From Eledone cirrhosa (Eukaryota), in assembly GCA_964016885.1 (NCBI GenBank), contig OZ024742.1, positions 361,212,001 to 361,276,000 on the forward strand: a stretch of DNA of 64,000 nt, written 5' to 3'. Shown here one piece after another: positions 2,144-64,000 of the stretch. The notes beneath the pieces are model-generated. The model saw only the letters and a list, made by a program, of their open reading frames with translations, ran no database searches and had not been told where the DNA came from. A program made the position numbers and the translations under genes. Positions within the stretch are counted from its first letter, which is position 1. Every line of letters begins with the position of its first letter.

Positions 2144-2285
2144 AATCAGATGAAGCACGATGTGTTTTTTTTATCTTAATTTATTTATATGTCCTGATAT
2201 TTCTTCTGAGGAAGAAGAGATTTTAATCTCGAAAATCAAGACATATAAATAAACTAAGGCAGAAAACATCTTGTTTTATTTGATT
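2144..2285 (+). mobile_element. Old fold-back element with a decayed hammerhead in the loop
   Basis: Imperfect ~55-60-bp inverted arms (2144-2203 / 2231-2285). Centre reads tctt-CTGAGGA-agaa-GAGAT-ttta-ATCTC-GAAA-a-TC-aaga. Confidence 0.5.
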
Positions 2286-2365
2286 TGTTTGTTTATTTGT
2301 CCATTGTGCAGTGTTGTGGCTTTCAAACTTTGAATTCTTTATACATATATATATATATATATATA

Positions 2366-2831
2366 TATTAAGATTACAGATTATAGTCTAAGCAAAGAAT
2401 CGCTCCTTTCGCCCTTAACGGGATCTTCTGAAACTAAAAAAAATCAATCTGTGAAGGCGGAAGTAAATAATTCGACAAACGTAGCAACCGAAAGAAAACA
2501 GGGAGACAATACTTTGGTTCGTGGAGACGTTCCCTGGCAATGAACGGAAAAAAAGCGAAGATAATACGTCGTTATGTGGAACGACGAGAACAATTACATG
2601 CAAAGACAAAACCACGTTTTCCTGTTTTCCTTCAGTTGCAACGTTTTTCGAAATATTTACTTCTGCGTTCACAGATTGATTTTTTTTTAGTTTCAGAAGA
2701 TCCCATTGAGGGTGAAAGTAGCGATTCTTTGCTTAAACTTTAATCTGTTATTTTAATAAATTTTTGCTCTAGGGTTCTTATACATTTGATATATATTTAT
2801 CCTTATCGAGCCCTCTTTGGATTTTAGTCTT
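2366..2831 (+). mobile_element. Asymmetric fold-back element between (TA)n tracts (family B)
   Basis: Diverged inverted arms 2366-2502 / 2621-2758, about 118-bp spacer and about 70-bp one-sided tail ending at (ATT)n. A homologous copy in the opposite orientation is at 48407-48581. Confidence 0.7.
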
Positions 2832-2848
2832 CACATTATTATTATTAT

Positions 2849-2888
<40 letters not shown>

Positions 2889-2893
<5 letters not shown>

Positions 2894-2971
2894 AACCAGT
2901 AAGACCCCGACGGCTGAGCTCAAGCCGTTTCGACGGCTAATTCTCTGGTTCCTTACCACATTTCCTTCGTT
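2889..2971 (+). mobile_element. Internally deleted copy of family A fold-back element in (TA)n
   Basis: 2889-2944 matches 588-643 with two substitutions; 2945-2971 is the reverse complement of 510-536. Confidence 0.8.
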
Positions 2972-3399
2972 ATATATATATATATATATATATATATAAG
3001 ACACTTGGCTTGTTTGGGAGATTAGGGGCTTCCCTTCAGTACACACATGGTCGATATAAGCCCATCCAACCCTTGCTAACAGGAAAAGTGGACCTGATGA
3101 TGATGATATATACATATATTCACTTATGTATATATAAATATAAATCCACATGTATACATACATGTTTATATACATGTATATATAGTATATACATAATATA
3201 TATCCTATTTTACAAAGTATAAAGCTTCTTCCACTTCTTTTCTTCACCCAATTATTCATGGAAGGTTCATTGAGGCAGAGTCCTACATCATGCCCTCCAT
3301 GGGTCCTGTCAGAGGAAAATGTCTCCAATTGATCTGACTGGATCCCCACGTGATACCAATGAAGCTTGTGAATGTTATTGAAGCATCTTGCTGGTAGTC

Positions 3400-3940
3400 T
3401 ACCTCTGGAGCTTATTGTGGAAGATTCTGCAGAAGTATGGAATCGATACAAATGACCTATACAAATTCCATAGTATTTGTGTTCAGGTGAATGGTGTTTA
3501 GTGAAAACCATACAATGTAGTTGTTGGATTCTGCCAAATAATAATATTCATAACAACTTTCATGTAGAGGATTGACATGTGCAGCTGGGTTGGAAGTAGT
3601 ATCAAGACCAGCAGGTTTCTGATCAGTTAAATAGAATTTGTAGAAAACCCAGTATTAATTTAACTCGTCAGATTGTCATCTCTGACATGTAATTTATAGT
3701 TTTGCCTCTGAGTGCTGCATACCAGGAATGAAAATAAATCAGTGTTGGAAAGACTGTGACACATGTTCTCTGGAGAAAACCTGCACAGTGCAGTAGAGCT
3801 CCTCTGAAGCAGATGGAGAAATTTAAGTATCTCGTTGTCATTTTCAAATTCCATATTATGAAGAGAATAAAAGCAATACTACATCAAAAGAGCAAACAGC
3901 ATACTGATGATCTTGCATTATAGAAAAATGTTACAACTAA
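3400..3940 (+). mobile_element. Decayed RTE-clade LINE, reverse transcriptase fragment
   Basis: Manual translation gives LWKILQKYGID...LYKFHSICVQVNGV**KPYNVVVGFCQ (from 3415), F-M*RID, GMKIN, LKQMEKFKYLVVIF and IKRANSIL. These are RTE RT motifs in the expected order, with stops and frameshifts. Confidence 0.75.
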
Positions 3941-4177
3941 ATATTTTAATCAAATTTGATATTCAATGAAACTAGTTAGAATTATTTTATTAAGAAAACA
4001 AGCAAACCAAGTTGTCTGCGGAAGAAGAAAATAAAAACATGATTATAGAAAGAATTGTTTTGAAGAGTTATTTACAAGCAAGAATTCAAAGTGTAAACAA
4101 GTTTTTCTCAAAATAATTAGTACAAGATGTTATATATATTTAAATGTATGCATATATATCGACACACATACACCCAC

Positions 4178-41684: not shown

Positions 41685-41729
41685 GCTCTATGTCTTAATA
41701 AAGTAGCATGGCAAAAATCTCCCAGCACT

Positions 41730-41845
41730 CACTGTAAACGAGGTTGGTGTTAGGAAGGGCGTCCAGCTGTAGAAATCAAGCCAGAATCAGTTCCCATCCC
41801 ACCCTTGCAAGCAGGGAAAAAGCGGACGTAAAATGAAATGATGAA
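41730..41845 (+). mobile_element. RTE LINE / SINE 3'-UTR fragment
   Basis: GGTTGGTGTTAGGAAGGGCGTCCAGCTGTAGAAA...GGACGTAAAATGA..ATGATG, homologous to 42260-42440 (-) and 50660-50822 (+). Confidence 0.7.
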
Positions 41846-42259
41846 AAAATGAAATGATTACCTCATTGTTTCAATAATTCTTAAAATTAAACATTTGGAG
41901 GAATTTGATGAAATAATTTCATTATCAATTTTAAGCAGATGTTTGGAATATTACTTCACAAACCTCTCTTTAAAAGTAATTTTGATTGAAGATTTTCATA
42001 TATTTCAAAATGTAGAATTTCATATTACAAAACTAGGCTTGTTTCTCATGGTTTCATATCAAAGGTTAAATCTTTCAGCCTTGAGTTCAAATTAACATCT
42101 ACCATCTACACCCCTGGACAGTATATTGTCAGAGTCATTAGACCATTAGATAGAATTCTTTGCAGTAGTCATTCTTACTAAAACATTTTCCAATATTAAA
42201 TCTTACGAAGTTCTGGGAATGCTTGATATTTGGAAATGTGAGATTCACAAATATAAAAA

Positions 42260-43350
42260 TCATCATCATCATCAATACCGTTTTACGTCCGTTCTTCCAT
42301 GCTAGCATGAGTTAGACGGGTTGTCCTGTTGTGGGTAGTGTCTGGTCGGCTGACCATTCCTTGCTCATACAGGAACTGATTTGGCTTGATTTCTACAACT
42401 GGATGCTCTTCCTAACTCCAACCTCATTTACAGTGAGTGCTGGGTGCTTTTTTCCGTGGCGCCTACACATCCACTTTATAGTGTGGGCTGGGTGCTTTTT
42501 TGCCGTGGTACCTCCACGACTACTTTGCAGTGGGAGGGTGTGGGGGCATATTGCCTATATGCTTCAGCTTGTACCCATGGGAGGTCGGGTACTCTGTATT
42601 ACTGCATGACGCCAGAGGTCACGGCCGTGTGTCATCGCCTTTGAGAGGTGTAATTGGGTAAGGTCGGCTTTTATCACCTCATCCCAGGTCTTCTTGGGTT
42701 TCCCCACTCCGCGGTTTCCATTGACTTCTAGTGCTCTGCACCTTTTTATGCAGCTGTTATCCTTCATATGCATCACATGTCCATACCAACGCAACTGCCT
42801 CTCCTGCACACAGCATTTGATTCCTCTTATGCTCAGTCTCTCTCTCTCAATTTATTTATGCTTTGCCATTTGCGTATATTACTATTACACATCCATCGGA
42901 GCATGCAGGCTTTATTTCTTTCTAATCTACGTAAGTCTTCCACCTTCAGCGCCCAGGTGTCACTACCATGTAACATTGCTGTTCGTATACAAGCATCATA
43001 CAGTCTGCCTTTCCTTTTGAGGGAGAAGCCTTTTGCAGCTAGCAGTGGCAGTAATTCTCTGAACTTCTTCCATCCCGTTCTTACCCTAGTTCTTTCTGAA
43101 CACCCACCTCCGCTGCTAATTCGGTCTCCTAGGTAGCAGAAGCTGTCTACTGTTTCTACAGAGCCCTCCCAGAGATTGGTGGTACTTGTTTCCTGTGGCT
43201 GTTTGCTGCTTGCTGTCCCAGCACAGCTGCTACATGTGAAGTCTACATTCTTAATTAAGCTTCCTGAGATCCCGCTACATCTCTTGTGTACCCATTGTTT
43301 GCATTTGGGGCAGAGAATGGAGTTCCTACCTACACCTTTCCTACATACTG
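42260..43350 (-). mobile_element. 5'-truncated RTE-clade LINE (Cys-rich insert, end of RT, C-terminus, 3' UTR, (GAT)n tail)
   Basis: ORF 42564-42809 reads LRWYGHVMHM...RGVGKPKKTW...RDLWR. Upstream manual translation gives ETVDSFCYLGD and CRKGVGRNSILCPKCKQWVHKRCSGI. Tail (CAT)n on the + strand at 42261-42273. Confidence 0.88.
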
Positions 43351-43366
43351 ATAGTATTAATAATCA

Positions 43367-43483
43367 ATCACTATAGAGAGTAGTTGAGAACGTTGGGTAT
43401 TTTCCCTTAACGATGGAAAAAGTGTCCACTTTTTCCATCACTAAGGGCAAAAATAGCAAATTTTCTCTATTATCCATAGTGAT
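43367..43483. repeat. Imperfect inverted repeat (hairpin or MITE-like)
   Basis: Perfect core GATGGAAAAAGTG-tc-CACTTTTTCCATC (43412-43439), with degenerate pairing out to ATCACTAT / ATAGTGAT. Confidence 0.75.
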
Positions 43484-44243
43484 CAAAAGTTATTACATTT
43501 ATTTCCTGTACTTGGGACTCTCACATTTCCAAATTTCACATTATTATAAAGGTAGTCTTCAAATAATTTAAAAGGAAAGCAAAGGGAATCAAATTCTGTC
43601 TAATGTTACAGGTATATTTAATATTGAAATATCAGTTTGTTGCTCCTGAATAGCCAATAGCTACTAAAATAGAACTTATCTGAAACATATTTAAATCTAT
43701 TTTTGTATTAATGGTTAATAGATAGGCTTTCTTAAATGTTTTCAAATGTTTTGTAATTAAGTTTTGGGACTTAATAATCACTAAGTCTATGTATTAGTAG
43801 CCATACTGCCCAGGCTAGTCCAATTAAGATGGCTTCCATCATGACATTGGAGATATTTGCTTCTATTTAACTACTTTCCAAAATGTATAAACAAATTTTA
43901 GCTCCAAATCTATTATTAGAATGATATTTAACTTCATTTCAATATATTCCAGGGAAAACATATGAAGAAGTTTTACAAATAGTACTTTTCAATAATTTAC
44001 ATACATATACAATCACAAGTATATATATATATGATTATCATCATCGCTTTTGAGTCAAGTTTTCCAGGCTTGCATGAACTGGATGTAATATTTGAAAGTA
44101 ATGATTTACAGCCAGATGCCATTCCTGTTAAACCTACTGTGTCACTTCATACAACTCACAAAGATACAGTGTACCTAATCCAGATACTCATAGCATATAT
44201 ATATATGTGTATGTGTGAGTGTGTCTTTGACCATATAATCTCA

Positions 44244-44330
44244 CATATCTGATGAGATGTTGAAAAAGCATTAGGCCTTGTCACCTTGATTGTACCCTGA
44301 ACTGATCGATATCAAAACAGTTGTAATATG
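44244..44330 (+). ncRNA. Type I hammerhead ribozyme relic with long loop II and a G-to-A change in GAAA
   Basis: Stem I CATAT/ATATG, CTGATGA, stem II GATGTTGA/TCGATATC, AAAA in place of GAAA, near-palindromic CAGTTG, GTA triplet, then AATAAA. Confidence 0.65.
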
Positions 44331-44730
44331 CAAATAAAGTTTGTACATATGATGTAACAATGACTTCGACTTTTTAAAATCTATTTGCACTACACACTAC
44401 AGTTATAACACTGGACTACAACCCAAATGGAATGGATGTCATAGCAGCATCAAGTGCTTCTAACAGGGCACTACCTGTAACTGCTGTTACACACTTAACT
44501 AATATATATACATATATATATTGTTATATTTGGGGAGGGTCATATTTGCGTAATATTGCCAGAATTAATAACAGAACACACTCACTGTTTGGTTGGTTTT
44601 CGCTTCTCGCTGTCTTTTATATATATATATCTGCGATCTAACTTACTCGGTCCTCAATGTTGCCATTGACTGACCGGCGGTCAAAAATAATACAGATACA
44701 ATATAGACAAACACATATATATATAGTTTA

Positions 44731-44768
44731 CATAAATCTTTCGTTGCACATCTGCAACATCGTCAGTG
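44731..44768 (-). ncRNA. Minimal hammerhead ribozyme core in the PLE 3' region (left arm)
   Basis: Exact mirror of 47899-47936. Confidence 0.7.
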
Positions 44769-45038
44769 GTGTTATATTCATTGTTCCTCCTGTTGTGTTG
44801 TATGTCTACGCCATTTTTTTTGTTCAGTCTGTCTATATATTTATTTATTTATTTGCTTGTTTGTTTATCTTATTTTATTTTGTCTTCTTTGCGCATGCGT
44901 TTGCGTGTGTGTATAGTGTTATGTGTGATGTGTGACTAGTGTGTATAGTGTTGTGTCTGCTGGGTGACTAGTGTGTGTTTATGTGCTTGTGTATGTATTT
45001 ATTTATCTTATTTTATTTAATTTAATTTACTTATTTAT

Positions 45039-46334
45039 TTATACTTCTCTTAGGTCAGTGTTGTTTGTTTGGGTGTTGTTGTTGTTCCACTCATTCTTTC
45101 TGTTTAGCTTTGGTCTTCTAATTTCTATTTCACTGGCCTCTCTGATTTGCCTATCTGCTGGGTCATTCCTATGTTTAGATATTATTCTAATTTCTATGTT
45201 GTCTATGTTACCGTCATGATGTTGTCTAGCATGTTCGTATAGTACTGACCCGTTTTTTCGTCCTTTTAGTTCCCCCCAGTGTTGGTCTATCCTTTCACCT
45301 ATGCTACGAGCTGTCTCACCTATGTATGTTGTTGTCGTGTTTCTGCAAGTACCCTCTGTACATCTTATGCTATAGACTACGTTTCTAGTTTTACAGTTTA
45401 TCCGGGGGTTCACCTTACATATGATACATTTCCTATTGGTACAGTGGGTTTTCTTAAAAGGGTAGGTTTTGCTGATCAGGGATTTTATGGTGGTTCCTGG
45501 CTTTTCTACCACCTTTATTTTTAAGTGGGTCTTTCTCAGGGCCTTTCTACACTGGTTAGCTAATTTCCCTCCAGGGGTGGCGTCCACAAACATGACACTC
45601 TGATATCTCTGGTTGTCGTACCATGATGTGGCCTTCCCTATCTTATGTCTAGCCCTATCTAAGCTATTCCATGATTTGCTCCTGTATAGTGGGCAAATTC
45701 CTTTCATGTCCAGTTCTATGAGGGTCTTATACTTTTCCATGGCTCCTTCGTATACTCTGACTCTGTCTCTTTGGTTGTAGCCAGAGAACTGCATGCGGTT
45801 GATGAAGTGTTGGATGTGTCCTTCCATTTCTGTTGGGTCGCACATGCTGGACACATTCTTCATCACTCGTACCAAATCTGCGATCAGAATATTAAACTTA
45901 GCACTACTGGACATTGCTGAGTTTTTGAGTATCAGGTATTTGGAGGCCATGGGTTTAGCATAGTGTGAGTGGAGAATTTGGGCTCTCTCGTCTATAGTGT
46001 TAATCCAGAGTTCTGTGTCTAATACAGGTAGTCTATTGTTAGGGTGTTTGGAAGGGAAGTCTATAGTTACAGTTATACTCTGGTGTATGGAATTAGCTAT
46101 CTGCTGGATGCTTTCCATCGTGCTACGTTCTAAATCAAACTTGTTAGTGCTCTCTAGTGGGGGTGTTCTTATAACTATATTGATATCGTCTACATAACGA
46201 GAGTACATGATGAGGTCTATGGAGCTTTCATTAAGGAGATCTTTAAGTCTCCTTTCCCACCATACCATGAAAAGGTTGGCAACATCGCCAGCTATGCTGA
46301 CGCCGATGGCTGCTCCCTCATTTTGGGTGTAGAT
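45039..46334 (-). CDS. Penelope-like RT (C-terminal half) plus GIY-YIG endonuclease, 5'-truncated (left arm)
   Basis: Identical mirror of the + strand ORF. The frame stays open from the palindrome axis, 22 codons upstream of the Met at 46268. Confidence 0.9.
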   Translation of the reverse strand: MYTQNEGAAIGVSIAGDVANLFMVWWERRLKDLLNESSIDLIMYSRYVDDINIVIRTPPLESTNKFDLERSTMESIQQIANSIHQSITVTIDFPSKHPNNRLPVLDTELWINTIDERAQILHSHYAKPMASKYLILKNSAMSSSAKFNILIADLVRVMKNVSSMCDPTEMEGHIQHFINRMQFSGYNQRDRVRVYEGAMEKYKTLIELDMKGICPLYRSKSWNSLDRARHKIGKATSWYDNQRYQSVMFVDATPGGKLANQCRKALRKTHLKIKVVEKPGTTIKSLISKTYPFKKTHCTNRKCIICKVNPRINCKTRNVVYSIRCTEGTCRNTTTTYIGETARSIGERIDQHWGELKGRKNGSVLYEHARQHHDGNIDNIEIRIISKHRNDPADRQIREASEIEIRRPKLNRKNEWNNNNTQTNNTDLREV

Positions 46335-47628
46335 CTACACCCAAAATGAGGGAGCAGCCATCGGCGTCAGCATAGCTGGCGATGTTGCCAACCTTTTCAT
46401 GGTATGGTGGGAAAGGAGACTTAAAGATCTCCTTAATGAAAGCTCCATAGACCTCATCATGTACTCTCGTTATGTAGACGATATCAATATAGTTATAAGA
46501 ACACCCCCACTAGAGAGCACTAACAAGTTTGATTTAGAACGTAGCACGATGGAAAGCATCCAGCAGATAGCTAATTCCATACACCAGAGTATAACTGTAA
46601 CTATAGACTTCCCTTCCAAACACCCTAACAATAGACTACCTGTATTAGACACAGAACTCTGGATTAACACTATAGACGAGAGAGCCCAAATTCTCCACTC
46701 ACACTATGCTAAACCCATGGCCTCCAAATACCTGATACTCAAAAACTCAGCAATGTCCAGTAGTGCTAAGTTTAATATTCTGATCGCAGATTTGGTACGA
46801 GTGATGAAGAATGTGTCCAGCATGTGCGACCCAACAGAAATGGAAGGACACATCCAACACTTCATCAACCGCATGCAGTTCTCTGGCTACAACCAAAGAG
46901 ACAGAGTCAGAGTATACGAAGGAGCCATGGAAAAGTATAAGACCCTCATAGAACTGGACATGAAAGGAATTTGCCCACTATACAGGAGCAAATCATGGAA
47001 TAGCTTAGATAGGGCTAGACATAAGATAGGGAAGGCCACATCATGGTACGACAACCAGAGATATCAGAGTGTCATGTTTGTGGACGCCACCCCTGGAGGG
47101 AAATTAGCTAACCAGTGTAGAAAGGCCCTGAGAAAGACCCACTTAAAAATAAAGGTGGTAGAAAAGCCAGGAACCACCATAAAATCCCTGATCAGCAAAA
47201 CCTACCCTTTTAAGAAAACCCACTGTACCAATAGGAAATGTATCATATGTAAGGTGAACCCCCGGATAAACTGTAAAACTAGAAACGTAGTCTATAGCAT
47301 AAGATGTACAGAGGGTACTTGCAGAAACACGACAACAACATACATAGGTGAGACAGCTCGTAGCATAGGTGAAAGGATAGACCAACACTGGGGGGAACTA
47401 AAAGGACGAAAAAACGGGTCAGTACTATACGAACATGCTAGACAACATCATGACGGTAACATAGACAACATAGAAATTAGAATAATATCTAAACATAGGA
47501 ATGACCCAGCAGATAGGCAAATCAGAGAGGCCAGTGAAATAGAAATTAGAAGACCAAAGCTAAACAGAAAGAATGAGTGGAACAACAACAACACCCAAAC
47601 AAACAACACTGACCTAAGAGAAGTATAA
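46333..47628 (+). CDS. Penelope-like RT (C-terminal half) plus GIY-YIG endonuclease, 5'-truncated (right arm)
   Basis: IYTQNEGAAIGVSIAGDVANLFM (RT motif B'), RYVDDI (motif C), LPVLD, HYAKP thumb region, linker CTNRKCIIC, and GIY-YIG domain NVVYSIRC..C..YIGETARSIGERIDQH..H...HH..R.IREA..I....PKLN. RT motif A and everything N-terminal to it are missing. Confidence 0.92.
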   Translation: MYTQNEGAAIGVSIAGDVANLFMVWWERRLKDLLNESSIDLIMYSRYVDDINIVIRTPPLESTNKFDLERSTMESIQQIANSIHQSITVTIDFPSKHPNNRLPVLDTELWINTIDERAQILHSHYAKPMASKYLILKNSAMSSSAKFNILIADLVRVMKNVSSMCDPTEMEGHIQHFINRMQFSGYNQRDRVRVYEGAMEKYKTLIELDMKGICPLYRSKSWNSLDRARHKIGKATSWYDNQRYQSVMFVDATPGGKLANQCRKALRKTHLKIKVVEKPGTTIKSLISKTYPFKKTHCTNRKCIICKVNPRINCKTRNVVYSIRCTEGTCRNTTTTYIGETARSIGERIDQHWGELKGRKNGSVLYEHARQHHDGNIDNIEIRIISKHRNDPADRQIREASEIEIRRPKLNRKNEWNNNNTQTNNTDLREV

Positions 47629-47898
47629 ATAAATAAGTAAATTAAATTAAATAAAATAAGATAAATAAATACATACACAAGCACATAAACACACACTAGT
47701 CACCCAGCAGACACAACACTATACACACTAGTCACACATCACACATAACACTATACACACACGCAAACGCATGCGCAAAGAAGACAAAATAAAATAAGAT
47801 AAACAAACAAGCAAATAAATAAATAAATATATAGACAGACTGAACAAAAAAAATGGCGTAGACATACAACACAACAGGAGGAACAATGAATATAACAC

Positions 47899-47936
47899 CA
47901 CTGACGATGTTGCAGATGTGCAACGAAAGATTTATG
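47899..47936 (+). ncRNA. Minimal hammerhead ribozyme core in the PLE 3' region / pLTR (right arm)
   Basis: ca-CTGACGA-t-GTTGCA-gatg-TGCAAC-GAAA-GATT-TA-tg, about 270 bp downstream of the stop codon on the sense strand. Stem I is short. Confidence 0.7.
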
Positions 47937-48045
47937 TAAACTATATATATATGTGTTTGTCTATATTGTATCTGTATTATTTTTGACCGCCGGTCAGTCA
48001 ATGGCAACATTGAGGACCGAGTAAGTTAGATCGCAGATATATATA

Positions 48046-48195
48046 TATAAAAGACAGCGAGAAGCGAAAACCAACCAAACAGTGAGTGTGTTCTGTTATT
48101 AATTCTGGCAATATTACGCAAATATGACCCTCCCCAAATATAACAATATCTGTTTCGACACACGATTTCATATAAAAAACCTCGCAAAACTAATA
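48046..48195 (+). promoter_or_regulatory. Candidate pLTR promoter and ORF start of the Penelope-like element
   Basis: TATAAAA at 48046-48052 and ATG at 48124, opening MTLPKYNNICFDTRFHIKNLAKLIH with no stop before the (TA)n. Confidence 0.35.
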
Positions 48196-48222
48196 CATAT
48201 ATATATATATAAATATATATAC

Positions 48223-48287
<65 letters not shown>

Positions 48288-48406
48288 CAAGGTTTAGCAA
48301 ATAAGAAAAAGTTTCAAAATAAATTAAAAAAAATTAACTTTACTCACTATGGTTACCTTTACCGAATTGGTATATATATATAGTAATAATAATAATCATC
48401 ATCATC

Positions 48407-48581
48407 AAGTCTAAAATCCAAAGAGGGCTCGATAAGGATAAATATATATCAAATATATAAGAACCCTAGAGCAAATACTTATTAAAATAACAGATCAAAG
48501 TTTAAGCAAAGAATTGTTGCTTTCACCCTTAACAGTGAAAGCAGCGATTCTTTGTTTAACTTTAATCTGTTATTTTAATAA
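48407..48581 (-). mobile_element. Second family B asymmetric fold-back element
   Basis: 48407-48530 matches the reverse complement of about 2708-2831. Hairpin arms 48479-48526 / 48535-48581 with an 8-bp loop. Confidence 0.75.
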
Positions 48582-48593
48582 ATAAATGTATAA

Positions 48594-48681
48594 ATACATA
48601 CATACATACATACATACATACATACATACATACATACATACATACATACATACATACATACATACATACATACATACATAC
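48594..48681 (+). repeat. (TACA)n microsatellite
   Basis: Read directly. Confidence 0.97.
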
Positions 48682-48990
48682 ACTACTTGGTTTGGATTTG
48701 AATTTACACATTCTAAATCATACTGATCTAGTTTTATGTGATTTGTGGGGGAAACAGGAATACTTAGTCAGGTTTACTTCTTCCCTTTACTTAGGGTTTG
48801 GTTTAGATTCATGAATTAGGTCTGTTTTCTTCAGGTTTATGGTGAGATGAAAAGCAAAGTTCTAGCAATTTTTCAAAGAAATATTCTATAATCTATTGAT
48901 CTTGTTCACACGATGTGGTGACCATTGCTGCAAATATCATATGAAGAATAACTTTTGTCTTATTCAGTGTCTTTGGCATGTAATGATTAA

Positions 48991-49202
48991 CCCTTTAGCA
49001 TTTAAACTGGCCATATCCAGCCAGAATTCTCTCATCTCTTTCTGTTCAAACTGATAGTAACGGGCCACTCATACTGTTGTTAAGGTATTGTTCTCAAAAT
49101 AAATAACATCAAAATCACATAGATTTGATATTATGTAAGATAAAGCATTTACCACAAAAATACAATAGTAAATATATATAGAGTAATGTGAATTCTAAAG
49201 GG
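48991..49202 (+). mobile_element. TTAA-flanked MITE (piggyBac-like termini)
   Basis: TTAA|CCCTTTAG ... CTAAAGGG|TTAA. Homologous to 57643-57857 and 51227-51590 in the opposite orientation. Confidence 0.85.
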
Positions 49203-49599
49203 TTAAACAATGATCTACAAGGACAAGAGATAAAATCCTGACTGTCTTGTGAAGGTCTTTAAAATACAGAACAATAGAGAATCCATTACACAACTTAGTC
49301 TCATTACAACATTTGAATATTACATTTGGAGTATTCATGAGATTGTCAACATGTACAGTGCTCATGCTCGCAAGCAAGTAGATAACATTATTTAGCATAT
49401 AATGTAGAAAATTATATGTTTAAGAAGGTTAAGACAATGGGAAATAGACAGTAAAATGAAGGTAATGAAAATGTTTTACCTGCTATTTATTGTTGTTATT
49501 TTTTCTTGCTTTTTTTAGCATGTTATCGGGTAGAATGGATGTGTATCTAAGTAAAGTTCTTTCAAGGTCTAAGAAGCTGAGACCTGGGCTCACCATAAT

Positions 49600-49945
49600 T
49601 CGTATCATCGTCACCTTTTACCTCCTTTCTTTCATGCTAGCATGGGTTAGACGAGTTTTCCTGTTGTGGGCAGTGTCCAGTCAGCTGACCTTGTCTTGCT
49701 CATACAGGAACTGATTCTGGCTTGACTTCTACAGCTGGACACCCTTCCCAACACCAACCTCATTTACAGAGAGTACTGGGTGCTTTTTTGTCGTGACACA
49801 TACACGACCACTTTAGAATGGGAGAGGGGTATACTGTCTATATGCTTAAGCTTCAGGTTGTATCCATGGAAAGTCAGGTCTTCTGTATTACTGCATAATG
49901 CCAGAGGTCTTGTGCCTGTGTCATCGCATTTGAGGACCAAGACCA
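49600..49945 (-). mobile_element. RTE LINE 3' end fragment
   Basis: Collinear with 42270-42645 (CATGCTAGCATGGGTTAGACG...GCTCATACAGGAACTGAT...TCTGTATTACTGCAT). Confidence 0.8.
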
Positions 49946-50169
49946 CTGAATAAATGGATATACTTCCTAAGTATTGATTGCATAATATTTGAGGGTATAC
50001 CTGGAGGGATATTCTATAATGTATAGCCAGTCTCAGTTTACTTAGGCTGGTTATGTAACTTGGATAAGTAGAAGTATCTTTAAAAATTTCTCCTATATGA
50101 CCAACCTTTGATGGTACACAAAATATTGTAAGACCTCTCTTAACATATTTAAGATATTCACTGTAGCAA

Positions 50170-50822
50170 GACCTATAAGATGTACATTACTTTTCTTTTG
50201 TATAGATATGACTACGTTGGTATGGTCACGTGATGTGCATGAAAGACGACAGCTGTATAAAAAAGTGCAGAGCAATCAAAATTGATGGCAGTTACGGAGT
50301 AAGTAGACCCAGAAAAGCCTGGGACGATTTGATAAATTCCAACTTTACACACTTACACCTCTCTAAGACAATGTAACTGAACCGAGATCTCTGGCACCAT
50401 TCAGAATACCCACCCTGCCTATGTACAAAGCGAAACCTAGTCAGTAGGCACCTCTTAACCAAATATACACCCCATCCCACTACCCCTACTCCACTCTCCC
50501 ACTCCCACCAACACCCCCTTTCTCTATAAAGTTATGTTGGTACCACAACATCCAGTCCAAACTAAAGAGGTCATGTAGGTGTCACGACAAAAAAAAAACA
50601 CAGTCCACGCTGTAAAGTGGCTGTGTAGGTAACACGGTAAAAAAGCTCCCAGTTCATACTGTAAATGTGGTTGGTGTTAGGAAGGGCATCCAGCCGTAGA
50701 AAATCTGCCAGACAGTCCTATACGAGCGAGACACGGTCACCTGACCAACCTCGCCTCAAGTGGGACAACTCCCGTCTAACCCATGCTAGTGTGACAGATA
50801 GATGTTAAACGATGATGATGAT
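50170..50822 (+). mobile_element. RTE LINE 3' fragment (ORF C-terminus, 3' UTR, (GAT)n tail)
   Basis: LRWYGHVMCMKDDSCIKKCRA at about 50212-50275; ends GATGTTAAACGATGATGATG. Confidence 0.85.
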
Positions 50823-51226
50823 GGTGTTGCTGCATTTGCTGATATAATAAAGATGAATGAAAAAGAAACAGTTAACTAGTGATCAACTTAGACTGAAATA
50901 AAGTTAATGTCTAAAATATAATTATTAACAAACTTTTGTTTGCTTATAAAGAAGGATCTCAGCAGAATGTTAGTCTCATATCTTAATTAGCTACACACTT
51001 ATAATAAGGAGATAGGAGACAAAAGTTGATAGTACACTAAGATGAGCATCAAGCCCTGATATTCACCTGTGTTGCATGTCATTAATCCATTGAGCTGTTT
51101 TGTTTTCAGAATTTAAGGAGTAGATGGAATGCACAGTCAAACACACACATATATAGCAGAATTTGGCTGTTAGAAAACCAATGAAACCACTAATATGAAC
51201 ACAAAAGGCTTATATTTGATGTTTAA

Positions 51227-51590
51227 CCCTTTAGCATTTACATCACTCTATATAAACCATTGCATTTTTGAGGTATACACTTTACCTCACATAATTGTGG
51301 ATTGGCAATATCGGTAGATGGTCGGACGCCATGCTTTCCAGCAAAGAGTTACGGCCCTTTATGGTCTGAGTTCAAATCCCGCCGAGGTTAACTTTGCCTT
51401 TCAGTAATACACTGGCATAATTGCTGGCCTTGTGGCAATAGTAGAAACAATAACATTGAATCTACAATATTTTGATATTGTTTATTTTGAGAAAAATACT
51501 TTAACATCAGTATGGGAAGCTGGCTATGGATGGTTTGAACAGAAAGAGCTGATAATTCTGGACGGATACAGCCAGTTTAAATGCTAGATA
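51227..51590 (-). mobile_element. TTAA MITE copy interrupted by a SINE
   Basis: Left TTAA|CCCTTTAGCATTTAC. The right part matches 57740-57857, and the right terminus is decayed. Confidence 0.7.
51296..51448 (+). mobile_element. tRNA-derived SINE nested in the MITE
   Basis: B-box-like GAGTTCAAATCCC followed by GCCGAGGTTAACTTTGCCTTTCA...TGCTGGCCTTGTG..GTAGAAAC, shared with 53940-54048 and 56010-56152. Confidence 0.75.
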
Positions 51591-53245
51591 GCGAATAAAC
51601 TCCATATGCTGAATAGAAGTAAATGTGAACTTATGAGATGAAGTAACAACTGTGCACAACTAATCTTGCCCTGGCTCTGGCCATAACAGTAAGTTAGTTT
51701 AGTAAACCCATTGCTTGAAATGATAATGGCATACTAAAATTCTGTATTTATTAGCACAACATGCTGAGTAGATTGAGAGAAATTTCTCATTGCTCATTTT
51801 AATTAAATATACAAAAAGGAAACGTCTGCAGAAGATTTCAAGATATTTTCAATTAAAAATCAAAGTAATGATCATAATTCTTTTTTCAGTCAATAGAATT
51901 TAGAGGAAAATAATTTAAAACGTTTTGCTTTAATGTACTTTAATTAAGTACACAAAGTGGTTGGGAATGTTTATTTGTAAACTACTGCAAATGTTGGGTA
52001 TTACATTTATAGAATTTATGTTGTGTTTATTAGTGTTAAGATTGAAAGAACATTGAACAACATGTGTGTGTGTGCATGTGTGTGAAAGTATCATGTTAAA
52101 GGGTGTCTGATTGTTTAAATCAATTGATGAGCTGATCTGAGGTGAAAAATATTTCACCTCTTTTATAACAATAGACCATACAAATACTCACATTATATTT
52201 GCTCTGATTTATAGCAAATCTAAAGACACCACACAACAACAAACACACAAGAACATGTATATACACTACCTCACAATCAAATATAAGTAGTCATACAACC
52301 ACAAACATCTTGTGTACCAATTAAATTCCTTTTATTAATGGCGTATTAATTACATTAATACACCAAATACTGTAAAGGAAAATTATATTTGCAAAAAGTA
52401 TGTTGTTGTGAGATTGGAAAGCTCTGCTCTAGATTTATTATATTGAGAAATTTAGCAAACAGATTTACTCTTAGAATTTGATTTTAAATGGTTTGTTTAA
52501 TTCATAGTTTTGCACACATACATACAAGCAGACAAAAATATCCACAAAATATATATATGGGACAAAATGTTGAGTTAAAAGAAGACAATGGCATGAGAAA
52601 AAATCAAATGATGTTGGACTGACCTCTGAAATTGAAATGAAAAAGATATTTAGATGCCTCAATCGATACTGTCACTCAACAAATAAAAAAACCTATTTGA
52701 ATGACTGTATCTTGTCATCCAAAGTATTATTTCTTCATCTCAATCAGATCAATTGATGACAAATTTGAATTCAATACAACAGGAATCACGAAGAAAAGAG
52801 ACTGAAGAATGTTCGTGAGTTCTCTAAAGGGATTGGAAAGACGTTTCTCTAGAGCATCTAAAATTCAGTTTCAACATTTGGAGCCCACAATGATATTGAT
52901 GAGATTACTTTTGACAAAAGCTGTCAGCATATAAGCATAGATTTTCTAAGCTGAAATTAATAAAGAATTTTCATCATTTACTGGGCAGTTCTTTCTATTG
53001 AAAGAAAATATACTGAATCACTTGGTGTTAAGATCATAAAAAATCAGAATAACGCATACATAGATATTAAAAAGGATAACTACCTCAATCTAATGTTTTT
53101 TCCTGTTTGTTTGAGGATAAATACATGATTACACGTCTACCAGATATAAACAACATGTATTTGAATTTTGCATTTCTAAAGAAATGCTGTGTGTTTATAA
53201 ATAAATATTTAGAAAGCCATAGTTATACAATAACACTGGCAGCTA

Positions 53246-53827: not shown

Positions 53828-54068
53828 CAAAAATAACATTTCAAATATTGTTTCTACTTTTGCCACAATGCCAGCAATTACTCAGTGTATTAATGGTACT
53901 TTATTTTATCAACCCTGTAAGGATGAAAGGCAAAGTTAAACTTCAAATCTCACCGAGGTTAACTTTGCTTTTCATCCTTACAGGGTCGATAAAATAAAGT
54001 ACCAGTAATGTACTGGTTAATTGCTGGCCTTGTGCCAAAAGTAGAAACTACTTGAAATGTTATTTTTG
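53828..54068. mobile_element. SINE fragment arranged as a head-to-head inverted duplication
   Basis: Arms 53850-53939 / 53959-54048 are SINE body. Pairing continues outside them (CAAAAATAACATTTCAA / TTGAAATGTTATTTTTG). Confidence 0.8.
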
Positions 54069-58599: not shown

Positions 58600-58825
58600 T
58601 AAACAGAGTGATTTTTGAATTTTTATGAGAACAGTACCACTGGTGTTGTCTTGCTAGGGCGATAACTACAATATGGTTTAACTAAGAGTAAGCCACTCTA
58701 ATTGGCATTTGTTAATGTGTAGGAAACCTTTGACAGTGTAGCATGCCCTGAAATGTGGTAATCTTTGAAAAAATTAGGTGTAGATAAATTTCTTGTAAGA
58801 GTGCACAGAATCACCATCGGCAGAA
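58600..58825 (+). mobile_element. Decayed RTE LINE RT fragment (motif A region) running into the minisatellite
   Basis: KSKPL*LAFVNV*ETFDSVACPEMW*SLKKLGVDKFLVRV, compared with the RTE pattern AFVDLEKAFDRVPR..IW..LRKLGV.EWLVR. Confidence 0.75.
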
Positions 58826-61800
58826 GCTATACATAGAATTACCATCATCAAAGGGTATATATAGCTATACATAGAATTACCATCAACAAAGGGTATATAG
58901 CTATGCATAGAATTACCATCATCAAAGGGTATATATAGCTATACATAGAATTACCATCAACAAAGGGTATATAGCTATGCATAGAATTACCATTATCAAA
59001 GGGTATATAAGCTATACACAGAATTACCATCATCAAAGGGTATATATAGCTATACATAGAATTACCATCAACAAAGGGTATATAGCTATGCATAGAATTA
59101 CCATCAACAAAAGGTATATAGCTATACATAGAATTACATCAACAAAGGGTATATAGCTATACATAGAATTACCATCAACAAACAGTATATAGCTATACAT
59201 AGAATTACCATCATCAAAGGGTATATAAGCTATACATAGAATTACCATCAACAAAGGGTATATAGCTATACATAGAATTACCATCAACGAACAGTATATA
59301 GCTATACACAGAATTACCATCATCAAAGGGTATATATAGCTATACATAGAATTACCATTATCAAAGGGTATATAGCTATACATAGAATTACCATGATCAA
59401 AGGGTATATAGCTATACATAGAATTACCATCATCAAAGGGTATATAGCTATACATAGAATTACCATGATCAAAGGGTATATAGCTATACATAGAATTACC
59501 ATCAACAAAGGGTATATAGCTATACATAGAATTACCATCATCAAAGGGTATATAGCTATACATAGAATTACCATCAACGAACAGTATATAACTATACACA
59601 GAATTACCATCATCAAAGGGTATATATAGCTATACATAGAATTACCATTATCAAAGGGTATATAGCTATACATAGAATTACCATGATCAAAGGGTATATA
59701 GCTATACATAGAATTACCATCATCAAAGGGTATATAGCTATACATAGAATTACCATGATCAAAGGGTATATAGCTATACATAGAATTACCATCAACAAAG
59801 GCTATATAAGCTATACATAGAATTACCATCAACAAACAGTATATAGCTATACATAGAATTACCATCATCAAAGGGTATATAAGCTATACATAGAATTACC
59901 ATCAACAAACAGTATATAGCTATACATAGAATTACCATGATCAAAGGGTATATATAGCTATACATAGAATTACCATCAACAAAAAGTATATAGCTATACA
60001 TAGAATTACCATCATCAAAGGGTATATAGCTATACATAGAATTACCATGATCAAAGCGTATATATAGCTATACATAGAATTACCATCATCAAAAGGTATA
60101 TAGCTATACATAGAATTACGATCAACAAACAGTATATAGCTATACATAGAATTACCATCAACAAACAGTATAAAGCTATACATAGAATTACCATCAACAA
60201 ACAGTATATAGCTATACACAGAATTACCACCATCAAAGGGTATATATAGCTATACATAGAATTACCATCAACAAACAGTATATAGCTATACATAGAATTA
60301 CCATCAACAAAGGGTATATAGCTATACATAGAATTACCATCATCAAAGGGTATATAGCTATACATAGAATTACCATCAACAAACAGTATATAGCTATACA
60401 CAGAATTACCATCATCAAAGGGTATATATAGCTATACATAGAATTACCATCATCAAAGGGTATATAGCTATACATAGAATTACCATGATCAAAGGGTATA
60501 TAGCTATACATAGAATTACCATCAACAAAGGGTATATAGCTATACATAGAATTACCATCATCAAAGGGTATATAAGCTATACATAGAATTACCATCAACA
60601 AACAGTATATAGCTATACATAGAATTACCATGATCAAAGGGTATATATAGCTATACATAGAATTACCATCAACAAAAAGTATATAGCTATACATAGAATT
60701 ACCATGATCAAAGGCTATATAGAGCTATACATAGAATTACCATCATCAAAAGGTATATAGCTATACATAGAATTACCATCAACAAACAGTATATAGCCAT
60801 ACATAGAATTACCATCAACAAAGGGTATATAGCTATACATAGAATTACCATCATCAAAGAGTATATAGCTATACATAGAATTACCATCAACAAACAGTAT
60901 ATAGCTATACACAGAATTACCATCATCAAAGGGTATATATAGCTATACATAGAATTACCATCATCAAAGGGTATATAGCTATACATAGAATTACCATGAT
61001 CAAAGGGTATATAGCTATACATAGAATTACCATCAACAAAGGGTATATAGCTATACATAGAATTACCATCATCAAAGGGTATATAAGCTATACATAGAAT
61101 TACCATCAACAAAGGGGATATAGCCATACATAGAATTACCATCAACAAAGGGGATATAGCCATACATAGAATTACCATCATCAAAGGGTATATAGCTATA
61201 CATAGAATTACCATCATCAAAGGGTATATAAGCTATACATAGAATTACCATCATCAAAGGGTATATAGCTATACATAGAATTACCATCATGAAAGGGTAT
61301 ATATAGCTATACATAGAATTACCATCATCAAAGGGTATATAGCTATACATAGAATTACCATCAACAAACAGTATATAGATATACACAGAATTACCATCAT
61401 CAAAGGGTATATATAGCTATACATAGAATTACCATCATCAAAGGGTATATAAGCTATACATAGAATTACCATCAACAAAGGGTATATAGCTATACACAGA
61501 ATTACCATCAACAAACAGTATAGAGCTATACATAGAATTACCATCACAAAGGGTATATAGCTATACATAGAATTACCATCATCAAAGGGTATATAAAGCT
61601 ATACATAGAATTACCATCATCAAACAGTATATAGCTATACATAGAATTACCATCATCAAAGGGTATATATAGCTATACATAGAATTAATTCATCAAAGGG
61701 TATATAGCTATACACAGAATTACCATCAACAAACAGTATATAGATATACACAGAATTACCATCAACAAACAGTATATAGCTATACATAGAATTACCATCA

Positions 61801-64000
61801 ACAAAGGGTATATAGCTAAACATAGAATTACCATTATCAAAGGGTATATAGCTATACCTAGAATTACCATCTTCAAAGGGTATATAAGCTATACATAGAA
61901 TTACCATCAACAAAGGGTATATAGCTATACATAGAATTACCATCATCAAATGGTATAAAAGCTATACATAGAATTACCATCAACAAAGGGTATATAGCTA
62001 TACATAGAATTACCATCATCAAACAGTATATAGCTATACATAGAATTACCATCAACAAACGGTATATGTAGCTATACATAGAATTACCATCATCAAAGGG
62101 TATATAGCTATACATAGAATTACCATCATCAAAGGTTATATAGCTATACATAGAATTACCATCAACAAACAGTATATAGCTATACATAGAATTACCATCA
62201 TCAAACAGTATATAGCTATACATAGAATTACCATCAACAAAGAGTATATATAGCTATACATAGAATTACCATCATCAAAGGGTATATAGCTATACATAGA
62301 ATTACCATCATCAAAGGGTATATAGCTATACATAGAATTACCATCATCAAAGGGTATATAGCTATACATAGAATTACCATCAACAAACAGTATATAGCTA
62401 TACACAGAATTACCATCATTAAAGGGTATATATAGCTATACATAGAATTACCATCATCAAAGGGTATATAAGCTATACATAGAATTACCATCATCAAAGG
62501 GTATATAGCTATACATAGAATTACCATCAACAAACAGTATATAGCTATACACAGAATTACCATCATCAAAGTGTATATATAGCTATACATAGAATTAACA
62601 TCATCAAAGGGTATATAGCTATACATAGAATTACCATGATCAAAGGGTATATAGCTATACATAGAATTACCATCAACAAAGAGTATATAGCTATACATAA
62701 AATTACCATCATCAAAGGGTATATAAGCTATACATAGGATTACCATCAACAAAGGGTATATAGCTATACATAGAATTACCATCATCAAAGGGTATATAGC
62801 TATATGTAGAATTACCATCATCAAAAGGTATATAGCTATAGATAGAATTACCATCAACAAACAGTATATAGCTATACACAGAATTACCATCAACAAAGGG
62901 TATATAGCTATACATAGAATTACCATCATCAAAGGGTATATTGCTATACATAGAATTACCATCATCAAAGGGTATAGAGCTATACATAGAATTACCATCA
63001 TCAAAGGATATATAGCTATACATAGAATTACCATCGTAAAAGGGTATATATAGCTATACATAGAATTACCATTAACAAACAGTATATAGCTATACACAGA
63101 ATTACCATCAATAAAGGGTATATAGCTATACATAGAATTACCATCATTAAAGTGTATATAGCTATACATAGAATTACCATCATCAAAGGGTATATTGCTA
63201 TACATAGAATTACCATCATCAAAGGGTATATAGCTATACATAGAATTACCATCATCAAAGGGTATATAGCTATACATAGAATTACCATCGTCAAAGGGTA
63301 TATATAGCTATACATAGAATTACCATTAACAAACAGTATATAGCTATACACAGAATTACCATCAACCAAGGGTATATAGCTATACATAGAATTACCATCA
63401 ACAAACAGTATATAGCTATACACAGAATTACCATCAACAAAGGGTATATAGCTATACATAGAATTACCATCAAAAACAGTATATAGCTATACATAGAATT
63501 ACCATCAACAAACAGTATATAGGTATACATAGAATTACCATCAACAAACAGTATATAGCTATACATAGAATTACCATCAACAAACAGTATATAGCTATAC
63601 ACAGAATTACCATCAACAAAGGGTATATAGCTATACATAGAATTACCATCAACAAACAGTATATAGCTATACATAGAATTACCATCAACAAACAGTATAT
63701 AGCTATACATAGAATTACCATCAACAAACAGTATATAGCTATACACAGAATTACCATCATCAAAGGGTATATAGCTATGCCTAGAATTACCATCAACAAA
63801 CAGTATATAGCTATACATAGAATTACCATCATCAAAGGGTATATAGCTATACATAGAATTACCATCATCAAAGTGTATATATAGCTATACATAGAATTAC
63901 CATCAACAAAGGGTACATAGCTATACACAGAATTACCATCATCAAAGGGTATATAGCTATACATAGAATTACCATCATCAAAGGGTATATATAGCTATAC
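58826..64000 (+). repeat. 36-38-bp minisatellite, consensus GCTATACATAGAATTACCATCA(T/A)CAAA(GG/CA)GTATATA, about 140 units, running off the window end
   Basis: Read directly. Length variants arise in the terminal TA run (+A, +TA). Confidence 0.99.

Follow-up and report, generated by a model that had tools for sequence, protein, structure and literature searches.

How a retroelement comes to lie in a genome as two identical arms facing each other is the question raised by a 64,000-nt stretch of Eledone cirrhosa DNA (GCA_964016885.1, contig OZ024742.1, positions 361,212,001 to 361,276,000; hereafter the window), which carries a 5'-truncated Penelope-like element (PLE) in the form of a palindrome. 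The left arm (44518–46333, minus strand; reference positions 2254–4069) and the identical right arm (46334–48149, plus strand) are exact reverse complements of 1816 nt each, with 0 mismatches and a 0-nt spacer, as an earlier note made from the sequence had described. They meet at AGA/TCT (46331–46336), inside an Ile codon three codons upstream of the Gln in motif B' of the reverse transcriptase (RT), again in agreement with that note. The second-best centre in the vicinity gives only 4 nt, which excludes a chance origin. The symmetry stops where the element does, at the fixed tail-less terminus of the family; the right arm runs on with element sequence to 48192–48194, a tail of 43–45 nt (48150–48194, plus strand) that the left arm lacks. 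Each outer end is embedded in a (TA)n stretch, of about 20 nt on the left side and 93 nt on the right. These outer features, including a right-only tail put at about 45 bp, had also been recognized correctly, with the exception of the end of the feature, which was placed at 48195, one base too far.

The earlier note explained the palindrome by a nascent cDNA that folded back on itself and was copied along nearly its whole length. Our comparison with the rest of the family led us to a different answer, namely that the locus is probably one young, Neptune-like Penelope insertion formed by twin priming, with the RT starting at two fixed sites of a single RNA. We collected 79 loci bearing a head-to-head junction and resolved both outer ends in 61; the remaining 18 were complex or extended beyond the retrieved sequence. 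A tailed end was paired with a tail-less end in 60 of the 61, one locus (L176) had two tails, and none had two tail-less ends. By mode of selection, the pairing was seen in 39 of 39 loci found via the tail-less end, 12 of 12 found via a long tailed arm, and 9 of 10 picked by hand. Among the 39, the tail-less arm was the longer in 23, by up to 4.5 kb, and the tailed arm in 14, with two equal; even in near-symmetric loci the tail-less arm was longer in 6 of 12. Such longer tail-less arms are not explained by fold-back, because a copy cannot exceed its template and a tail-less template cannot yield a tail.

Many copies that pass for solo insertions carry, in inverted orientation, a stub made of only the last 13–39 nt of the tail, and the partner arm is without that sequence. 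Since stub and partner have no sequence in common, the stubs were made separately from their partners. They were present at 13 of the 23 loci of a stub-directed search, the other 10 being seven longer tailed arms with a substitution, one that overlapped its partner by 25 nt, and two without a partner. Six clear cases occurred in a positional sample, the first 100 tail-less matches on contig C1, taken as 99 regions. Where the arms of asymmetric insertions could be compared (37 junctions, one locus counted twice), 39 rare alleles were shared between arms versus 4 discordant polymorphic sites, indicating that both arms came from one source. Taken together, the pairing rule, the longer tail-less arms, the tail-only stubs, and the shared alleles point to two separately primed cDNAs, each started from one of the target ends and at a fixed site of its own. 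One complex insertion, L089, has the breakpoint pair 1945/3072 twice in opposite arrangement, perhaps through secondary rearrangement or an assembly fault.

The insertion itself is supported by an empty counterpart. Besides the window, the genome contains a single exact match to the left flank. It is 4.1 Mb away, at a paralogous site that has no element sequence and belongs to a ~10-kb inverted duplication (96.5–98.7% alike). The two places (window 41707–52100 and G000:C3:357152474-357159558, L214), both adjoined by a 30-bp satellite, represent an inverted segmental duplication or a misplaced haplotype, and the reading as an insertion is unchanged in either case. The left flank tracks the empty site for 32 nt and the right flank for 29 nt, with an overlap of 14 nt. 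Because the empty paralogue holds the target once, the insertion made a target duplication, which amounts to 8–14 nt after allowing for bases common to the element ends. Its left copy (44508–44521, plus strand, up to 14 nt) shares its last 4 nt with the element end; its right copy (48193–48206, plus strand) shares its first 2 nt with the tail and opens the 93-nt (TA)n tract. In all three contig sets of one sample, a flank contig extends 4–5 letters unaligned beyond 44521, a weak hint of an empty allele that we did not count as evidence.

The 1859-nt arm was found letter for letter at four other loci (L002–L005), and of 1745 first-look candidates for the arm in the genome of the window, the 40 that were scored were 99–100% identical. 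The empty site, the target duplication, and the four letter-identical loci together uphold a single young insertion event. The perfect identity of the arms is itself weak evidence for age or for a single template, because unrelated copies are equally identical.

The palindrome of the window is ordinary for its family. In the genome (G000), we counted 2323 occurrences of the tail-less end with ATAT after it and 1547 of the tailed form, tandem joints included. In the positional sample, 84 of the 99 regions matched the family, and a head-to-head junction was present in 47 of these 84 loci. Near-perfect palindromes with arms of 1.8–2.9 kb were found at L129 (2927/2905), L072 (2157/2110), L168 (1920/1985), and L167 (1828/1871); L129 alone came from the positional sample, the others having been chosen by length or pivot. 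The palindrome of L167 has a 1-nt centre 12 nt from the pivot of the window locus, and a zero spacer at a natural palindrome recurs, with short arms, in L097. Given these loci, the description of the window palindrome as an extreme case did not hold. The family has three fixed termini in all, the tail-less end and two tail ends; tails of ~43 and ~58 nt (ends at reference 4112 and 4127) were represented by 21 short and 36 long cases among 57 parsed insertions, and that of the window is of the shorter class. In runs X6–X8 and X12, mapped on window 43900–46420, the family was very deep and carried many near-fixed differences from the arm; hence, a different subfamily dominates in these samples.

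The arms of an insertion do not end independently of each other. Symmetric joins, with both arms ending within 40 nt, made up 12 of the 39 loci versus 2.5 expected after shuffling, and none of 20000 shuffles reached 12; within 5 nt, there were 6 of 39 versus 0.5 expected. With symmetric joins this far above chance, the truncation points of the two arms must be coupled somehow. Natural micro-inverted repeats occur at several pivots; that of the window palindrome has AGA-AAA-TCT, and in L129 there is a 6-of-7 stem closing a 13-nt loop. The centre of the window palindrome is without the AAA loop of the intact element and retains only the central AT, the one part that is natural on both strands. 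Four other junctions fall at this pivot, three of which are short snap-backs (31, 39, and 161 nt) on the tail-less arm; the snap-back of L166 retains the AAA loop and then joins a separate tailed arm. Fold-back junctions thus numbered 4 besides that of the window versus 0, 1, and 0 at three control positions, and L159 breaks at the same base. As a post hoc comparison (binomial about 0.02, by hand), the hotspot is suggestive only. Self-priming occurs in the family, at this very pivot, and accounts for part of the symmetric-join excess. We rejected a natural AGATCT in the source, as arm-identical copies read AAAA at this position. An AAG allele was seen in 3 of the first 100 among 1274 matches, and the 4 such copies examined were 84–95% alike to the arm.

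A sequence of events can be proposed on this basis. The element enzyme would nick both strands of the (TA)n target 8–14 nt apart, and a single RNA would be the template of two cDNAs; one would be primed at the tail-less site, the other 43–58 nt further out, at the tail end. Both would extend toward the 5' end of the RNA and would then be joined head to head. In most pairs, the two cDNAs would differ in where they stop, which would produce the frequent unequal arms, with a symmetric join in about 30% of insertions. For a seamless palindrome, we consider three routes. In route (a), to which we give about as much weight as to the other two together, one cDNA would snap back at the pivot, and its copy, being complementary to the partner cDNA, would anneal to it, leaving one end of each kind. 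In route (b), a possible though less favored course, both cDNAs would stop at the same nucleotide and pair through the natural self-complementary AT. In route (c), which seems doubtful, a trailing, strand-displacing RT would switch onto the displaced cDNA. The loop-less centre is compatible with end-to-end pairing of two cDNAs that share their last base, or with a template switch to a displaced strand.

Several points weigh against this interpretation. One pair of tailed ends does exist (L176). The shared alleles are compatible not just with a single RNA but also with two RNAs transcribed from the same source locus, or with gene conversion at a later time. At the window locus it is the tailed arm that is longer, so a single-cDNA fold-back is geometrically possible there. 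The positional sample covers the first 150 Mb of one contig. Repeats resembling target duplications, which speak for the interpretation, were found at 23 of 52 head-to-head loci with parsable flanks, versus 3.5 after shuffling and with a mode of 13 nt, but the null of this comparison ignores the periodic microsatellites that inflate the count. Of 61 asymmetric junctions from samples selected on other grounds, a single one had a short snap-back, and route (a) may be rarer than the search at the pivot implies; moreover, routes (a) to (c) would leave the same product and are inseparable by sequence. The zero spacer is a reading of the assembly: among the 14 runs listed, the 4 that were used (one restriction-site-associated DNA run and three contig sets from a single sample) had no read or contig across the pivot. 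Finally, the in vitro work that resembles our scheme concerns another clade, Poseidon, and revealed no difference in start site between the strands (PMC11167929).

The mechanism of the earlier note is half right at most. Self-priming occurs in the family and at this pivot, as that note supposed; near-whole-length copying integrated as a hairpin is the part that we could not support. A hairpin made from one cDNA as the integration intermediate disagrees with the left end, which is the fixed second terminus of the family; the tail-only stubs and the longer tail-less arms show that the two ends are made separately. In its full form, this explanation has one tail-primed cDNA folding back and copying itself almost to its start, with the short end of the integrated hairpin defined by an endonuclease (EN) cut or stop site. 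We regard it as unlikely, even though the geometry of the window locus, the excess of symmetric joins, and the micro-inverted repeats at several pivots (AGA-AAA-TCT here, and that of L129) would all suit it. Fold-back of one cDNA is unable to make tail-only stubs or to give the longer tail-less arms (23 of 39, including 6 of 12 near-symmetric loci), and a natural hairpin should have kept the AAA loop, as L166 does and the window locus does not. A zero-nucleotide loop cannot prime in cis unless bases are added. Published suggestions in the same direction are self-priming (PMC3846280) and 'EN-mediated resolution' (PMC8557442).

If the palindrome is real and the zero spacer not original, the 3-nt AAA loop could have been lost in consensus polishing or by trimming of a cruciform tip. 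The natural sequence AGA-AAA-TCT, the looped junction at another locus, the identity of looped and loop-less forms once homopolymers are compressed, and the lack of a read across the centre in the runs named above agree with such a loss. The same assembly, however, retains centres of 1–13 nt in equal or larger palindromes (L167, L168, L072, and L129), and L097 again has a zero spacer at a natural palindrome, which makes this explanation improbable. That the mirror image is a fold-back read or an assembly artefact, the outcome that would have overturned the earlier note, is very improbable. The perfectly identical arms and the missing spanning read would be expected of an artefact, but the symmetry stops at the fixed terminus of the family instead of at the end of a read, the flanks are unlike each other and collinear with the empty paralogue, a target duplication is present, and the structure is typical of the family. 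Two independent insertions meeting head to head are the least credible of all and already largely excluded. Copies in this family are young enough for unrelated ones to match over the whole arm (L002–L005); nevertheless, a single target duplication encloses both arms, both insertions would have had to break at the same nucleotide, and the tailed/tail-less pairing (60 of 61) stands against them. Twin priming remains our preferred account of the locus.

The assignment of the element to the GIY-YIG PLEs, made in the earlier note, is supported by RT, linker, and nuclease motifs. The family unit is ~4130 nt, and an intact copy (L073) has an open reading frame (ORF) of 1209 aa. The ORF remnant of the window (46333–47628, plus strand, 431 aa; mirror at 45039–46334, minus strand) begins three codons before motif B' (46342–46365) and extends through YVDD (46471–46482), the thumb, and a CX4CxxC linker (47224–47250) to a GIY-YIG-type nuclease with VVY at 47287 and YIGE at 47341. 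The RT motifs (DKS, A, B', and YVDD) can be aligned to those of homologues with an RVT_1 score, and distant homologues score GIY-YIG, while Pfam gave no match for the remnant or for the full protein itself. A single-sequence PDB search with the element protein had no match; a profile built from its relatives matched solved RTs (best E 1.3e-7), with TERT at E 0.11. The nuclease has two Cys between its motifs (CCHH type), and VVY..C1103..C1108..YIGE, R1126, H1146, E1177, and N1189 are conserved. In contrast to the N-terminal endonuclease of Naiad/Chlamys, the nuclease is C-terminal. Between RT and EN lies a finger, C1076-x4-C1081-x2-C1084, whose spacing fits the CX2-5CxxC linker that defines the Neptune clade (PMC8557442). 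Penelope/Poseidon elements have no linker Zn finger, whereas Hydra elements are without CCHH and have DKT and a CxCX5C linker in place of the CCHH cysteines, DKS, and CX4CxxC seen here. (TA)n flanks in nearly all loci among those listed correspond to the microsatellite targeting of the Neptune type. Partial tandems that form pseudo-long terminal repeats (pLTRs; period ~4130 nt), an inverted 5'-truncated copy, and a one-sided tail are hallmarks of EN-containing (EN+) PLEs. Among named proteins, the closest relative comes from Octopus vulgaris (69%), and the matches included no named Neptune or Nematis protein. From these motifs, we classify the element as a C-terminal EN+ PLE that appears Neptune-like, with placement in Nematis also possible.

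A likely start codon (MTLPKYNN, 48124–48149, plus strand) lies within the pLTR end, and the tail continues that ORF, corresponding to codons 9–23 of the next unit. The pLTR also contains a putative minimal hammerhead-like core (CUGACGA, stem II, GAAA; 47901–47929, plus strand; mirror at 44738–44766), of which stem II folds. Rfam gave no hammerhead and only sub-threshold hairpin matches, and two pLTR stretches folded no better than their shuffles (z -0.28 and 0.52). With half of the RT missing, the inserted copy is dead, and we saw no sign of a host function for it. The open ORF of L073 (2085–5714, minus strand) has a long Asn-rich insert upstream of the RT (residues ~248–412), resembling the Asn-rich inserts of Adineta Penelopes but at a different position.

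Structures of this kind have already been described for PLEs, and the valuable part of our data is the family-wide evidence on mechanism. A general scheme of inverted-pLTR insertions in EN+ PLEs is available (PMC8557442), and in Adineta vaga Pen2a/Pen2 such insertions, with target duplications of 8–10 bp, show palindromes that were read as self-priming, probably on an antisense template (PMC3846280). Like Pen2a/Pen2, the present family has an inverted, 5'-truncated, head-to-head copy with a junction palindrome and a tail at one end only, as well as a pLTR with the first ORF codons, a tail extending the ORF, partial tandems, and an Asn-rich ORF insert. It differs in its kilobase arms over coding sequence, its two tail lengths (~43 and ~58 nt), and its thousands of young copies, which make the pairing rule countable. 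The Poseidon element PAc of Anolis carolinensis provides a biochemical parallel, its protein nicking and extending both strands in vitro from two start sites that flank the tail, with a predicted dimer (PMC11167929). Both systems use an AT-rich target and fixed internal RT starts within the ORF start, with the tail between them, and our element has an additional linker Zn finger. The main text on PAc contains no discussion of inverted insertions or twin priming (PMC11167929).

Twin priming in L1 is reportedly to be traced to Ostertag and Kazazian (2001). In that system, two nicks prime two cDNAs on one RNA, which join by microcomplementarity and leave an inversion in one target duplication (bioRxiv 10.1101/2024.08.27.596794, PMC10191854). 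The genomic signatures seen here are consistent with two-ended priming of this type, from one template inside one target duplication, with the ends of two target-primed cDNAs joined. The L1 hallmark of a variable internal second-primer site is replaced by two outer ends at fixed positions; L1 uses a chance internal second primer and its parts barely overlap, while in our family fixed 3' starts give full overlap and an inverted repeat.

Snap-back synthesis is said to be a property of group II intron-like RTs also. For DNA polymerase theta, a 3' end primes on a short upstream complement (bioRxiv 10.1101/2022.03.14.484287). The short inverted self-copies in L164, L165, L166, and L150 are similar, although in the known systems the activity belongs to polymerase theta or group II intron-like RTs, and here it is seen from genomic copies. 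Our literature search, which did not extend to older subscription papers and supplements, where the model may be present, turned up no application of twin priming to Penelope inversions.

The window holds several other repeats. In the same (TA)n tract as the palindrome, 48284–48371 is the end of a second high-copy repeat that is absent from the empty paralogue; two other copies of it (L218 and L219) have head-to-head arms in (TA)n, one with a 482-nt partial tandem as well, and it is possibly another Penelope-type family. Tandem arrays occupy 5071–41482 (36 kb, 30-bp unit, ~1216 copies, 90% matches) and 58825–64000 (36-bp unit, at least 142 copies and continuing beyond the window). A 176-aa frame at 42833–43363 (minus strand) contains a PHD finger (Pfam E 2.9e-6) followed by sequence that we take to be a typical C-terminus of an RTE-type long interspersed nuclear element (LINE) RT, and is probably a LINE fragment. 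An inverted repeat of 93 nt, 89% complementary with a 13-nt spacer, lies at 53850–54048.

By itself, the window locus is an ordinary dead copy; it is the very young family, with thousands of copies, that makes the products of integration countable. The origin of the tandem and inverted structures of PLEs, and of the tail, has been named an open problem (PMC8557442). We lean, somewhat less firmly than for the locus itself, toward symmetric twin priming as the rule by which PLEs integrate: a dimer would cut both strands, each half would prime on the same RNA at its own fixed start site, the tail would be the offset between the two, and every 'inverted pLTR' would be a second cDNA. If true, this would account for features that reviews leave unexplained, namely the presence of a tail and its restriction to one end, the inverted head-to-head copies, and the duplicated target. 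A specific model, directly testable in the existing in vitro PLE system, follows from the pairing rule, obeyed in 60 of 61 loci, and from the tail-only stubs. Such elements also give rise to long perfect palindromes, which are known to be fragile and to mislead assemblers.

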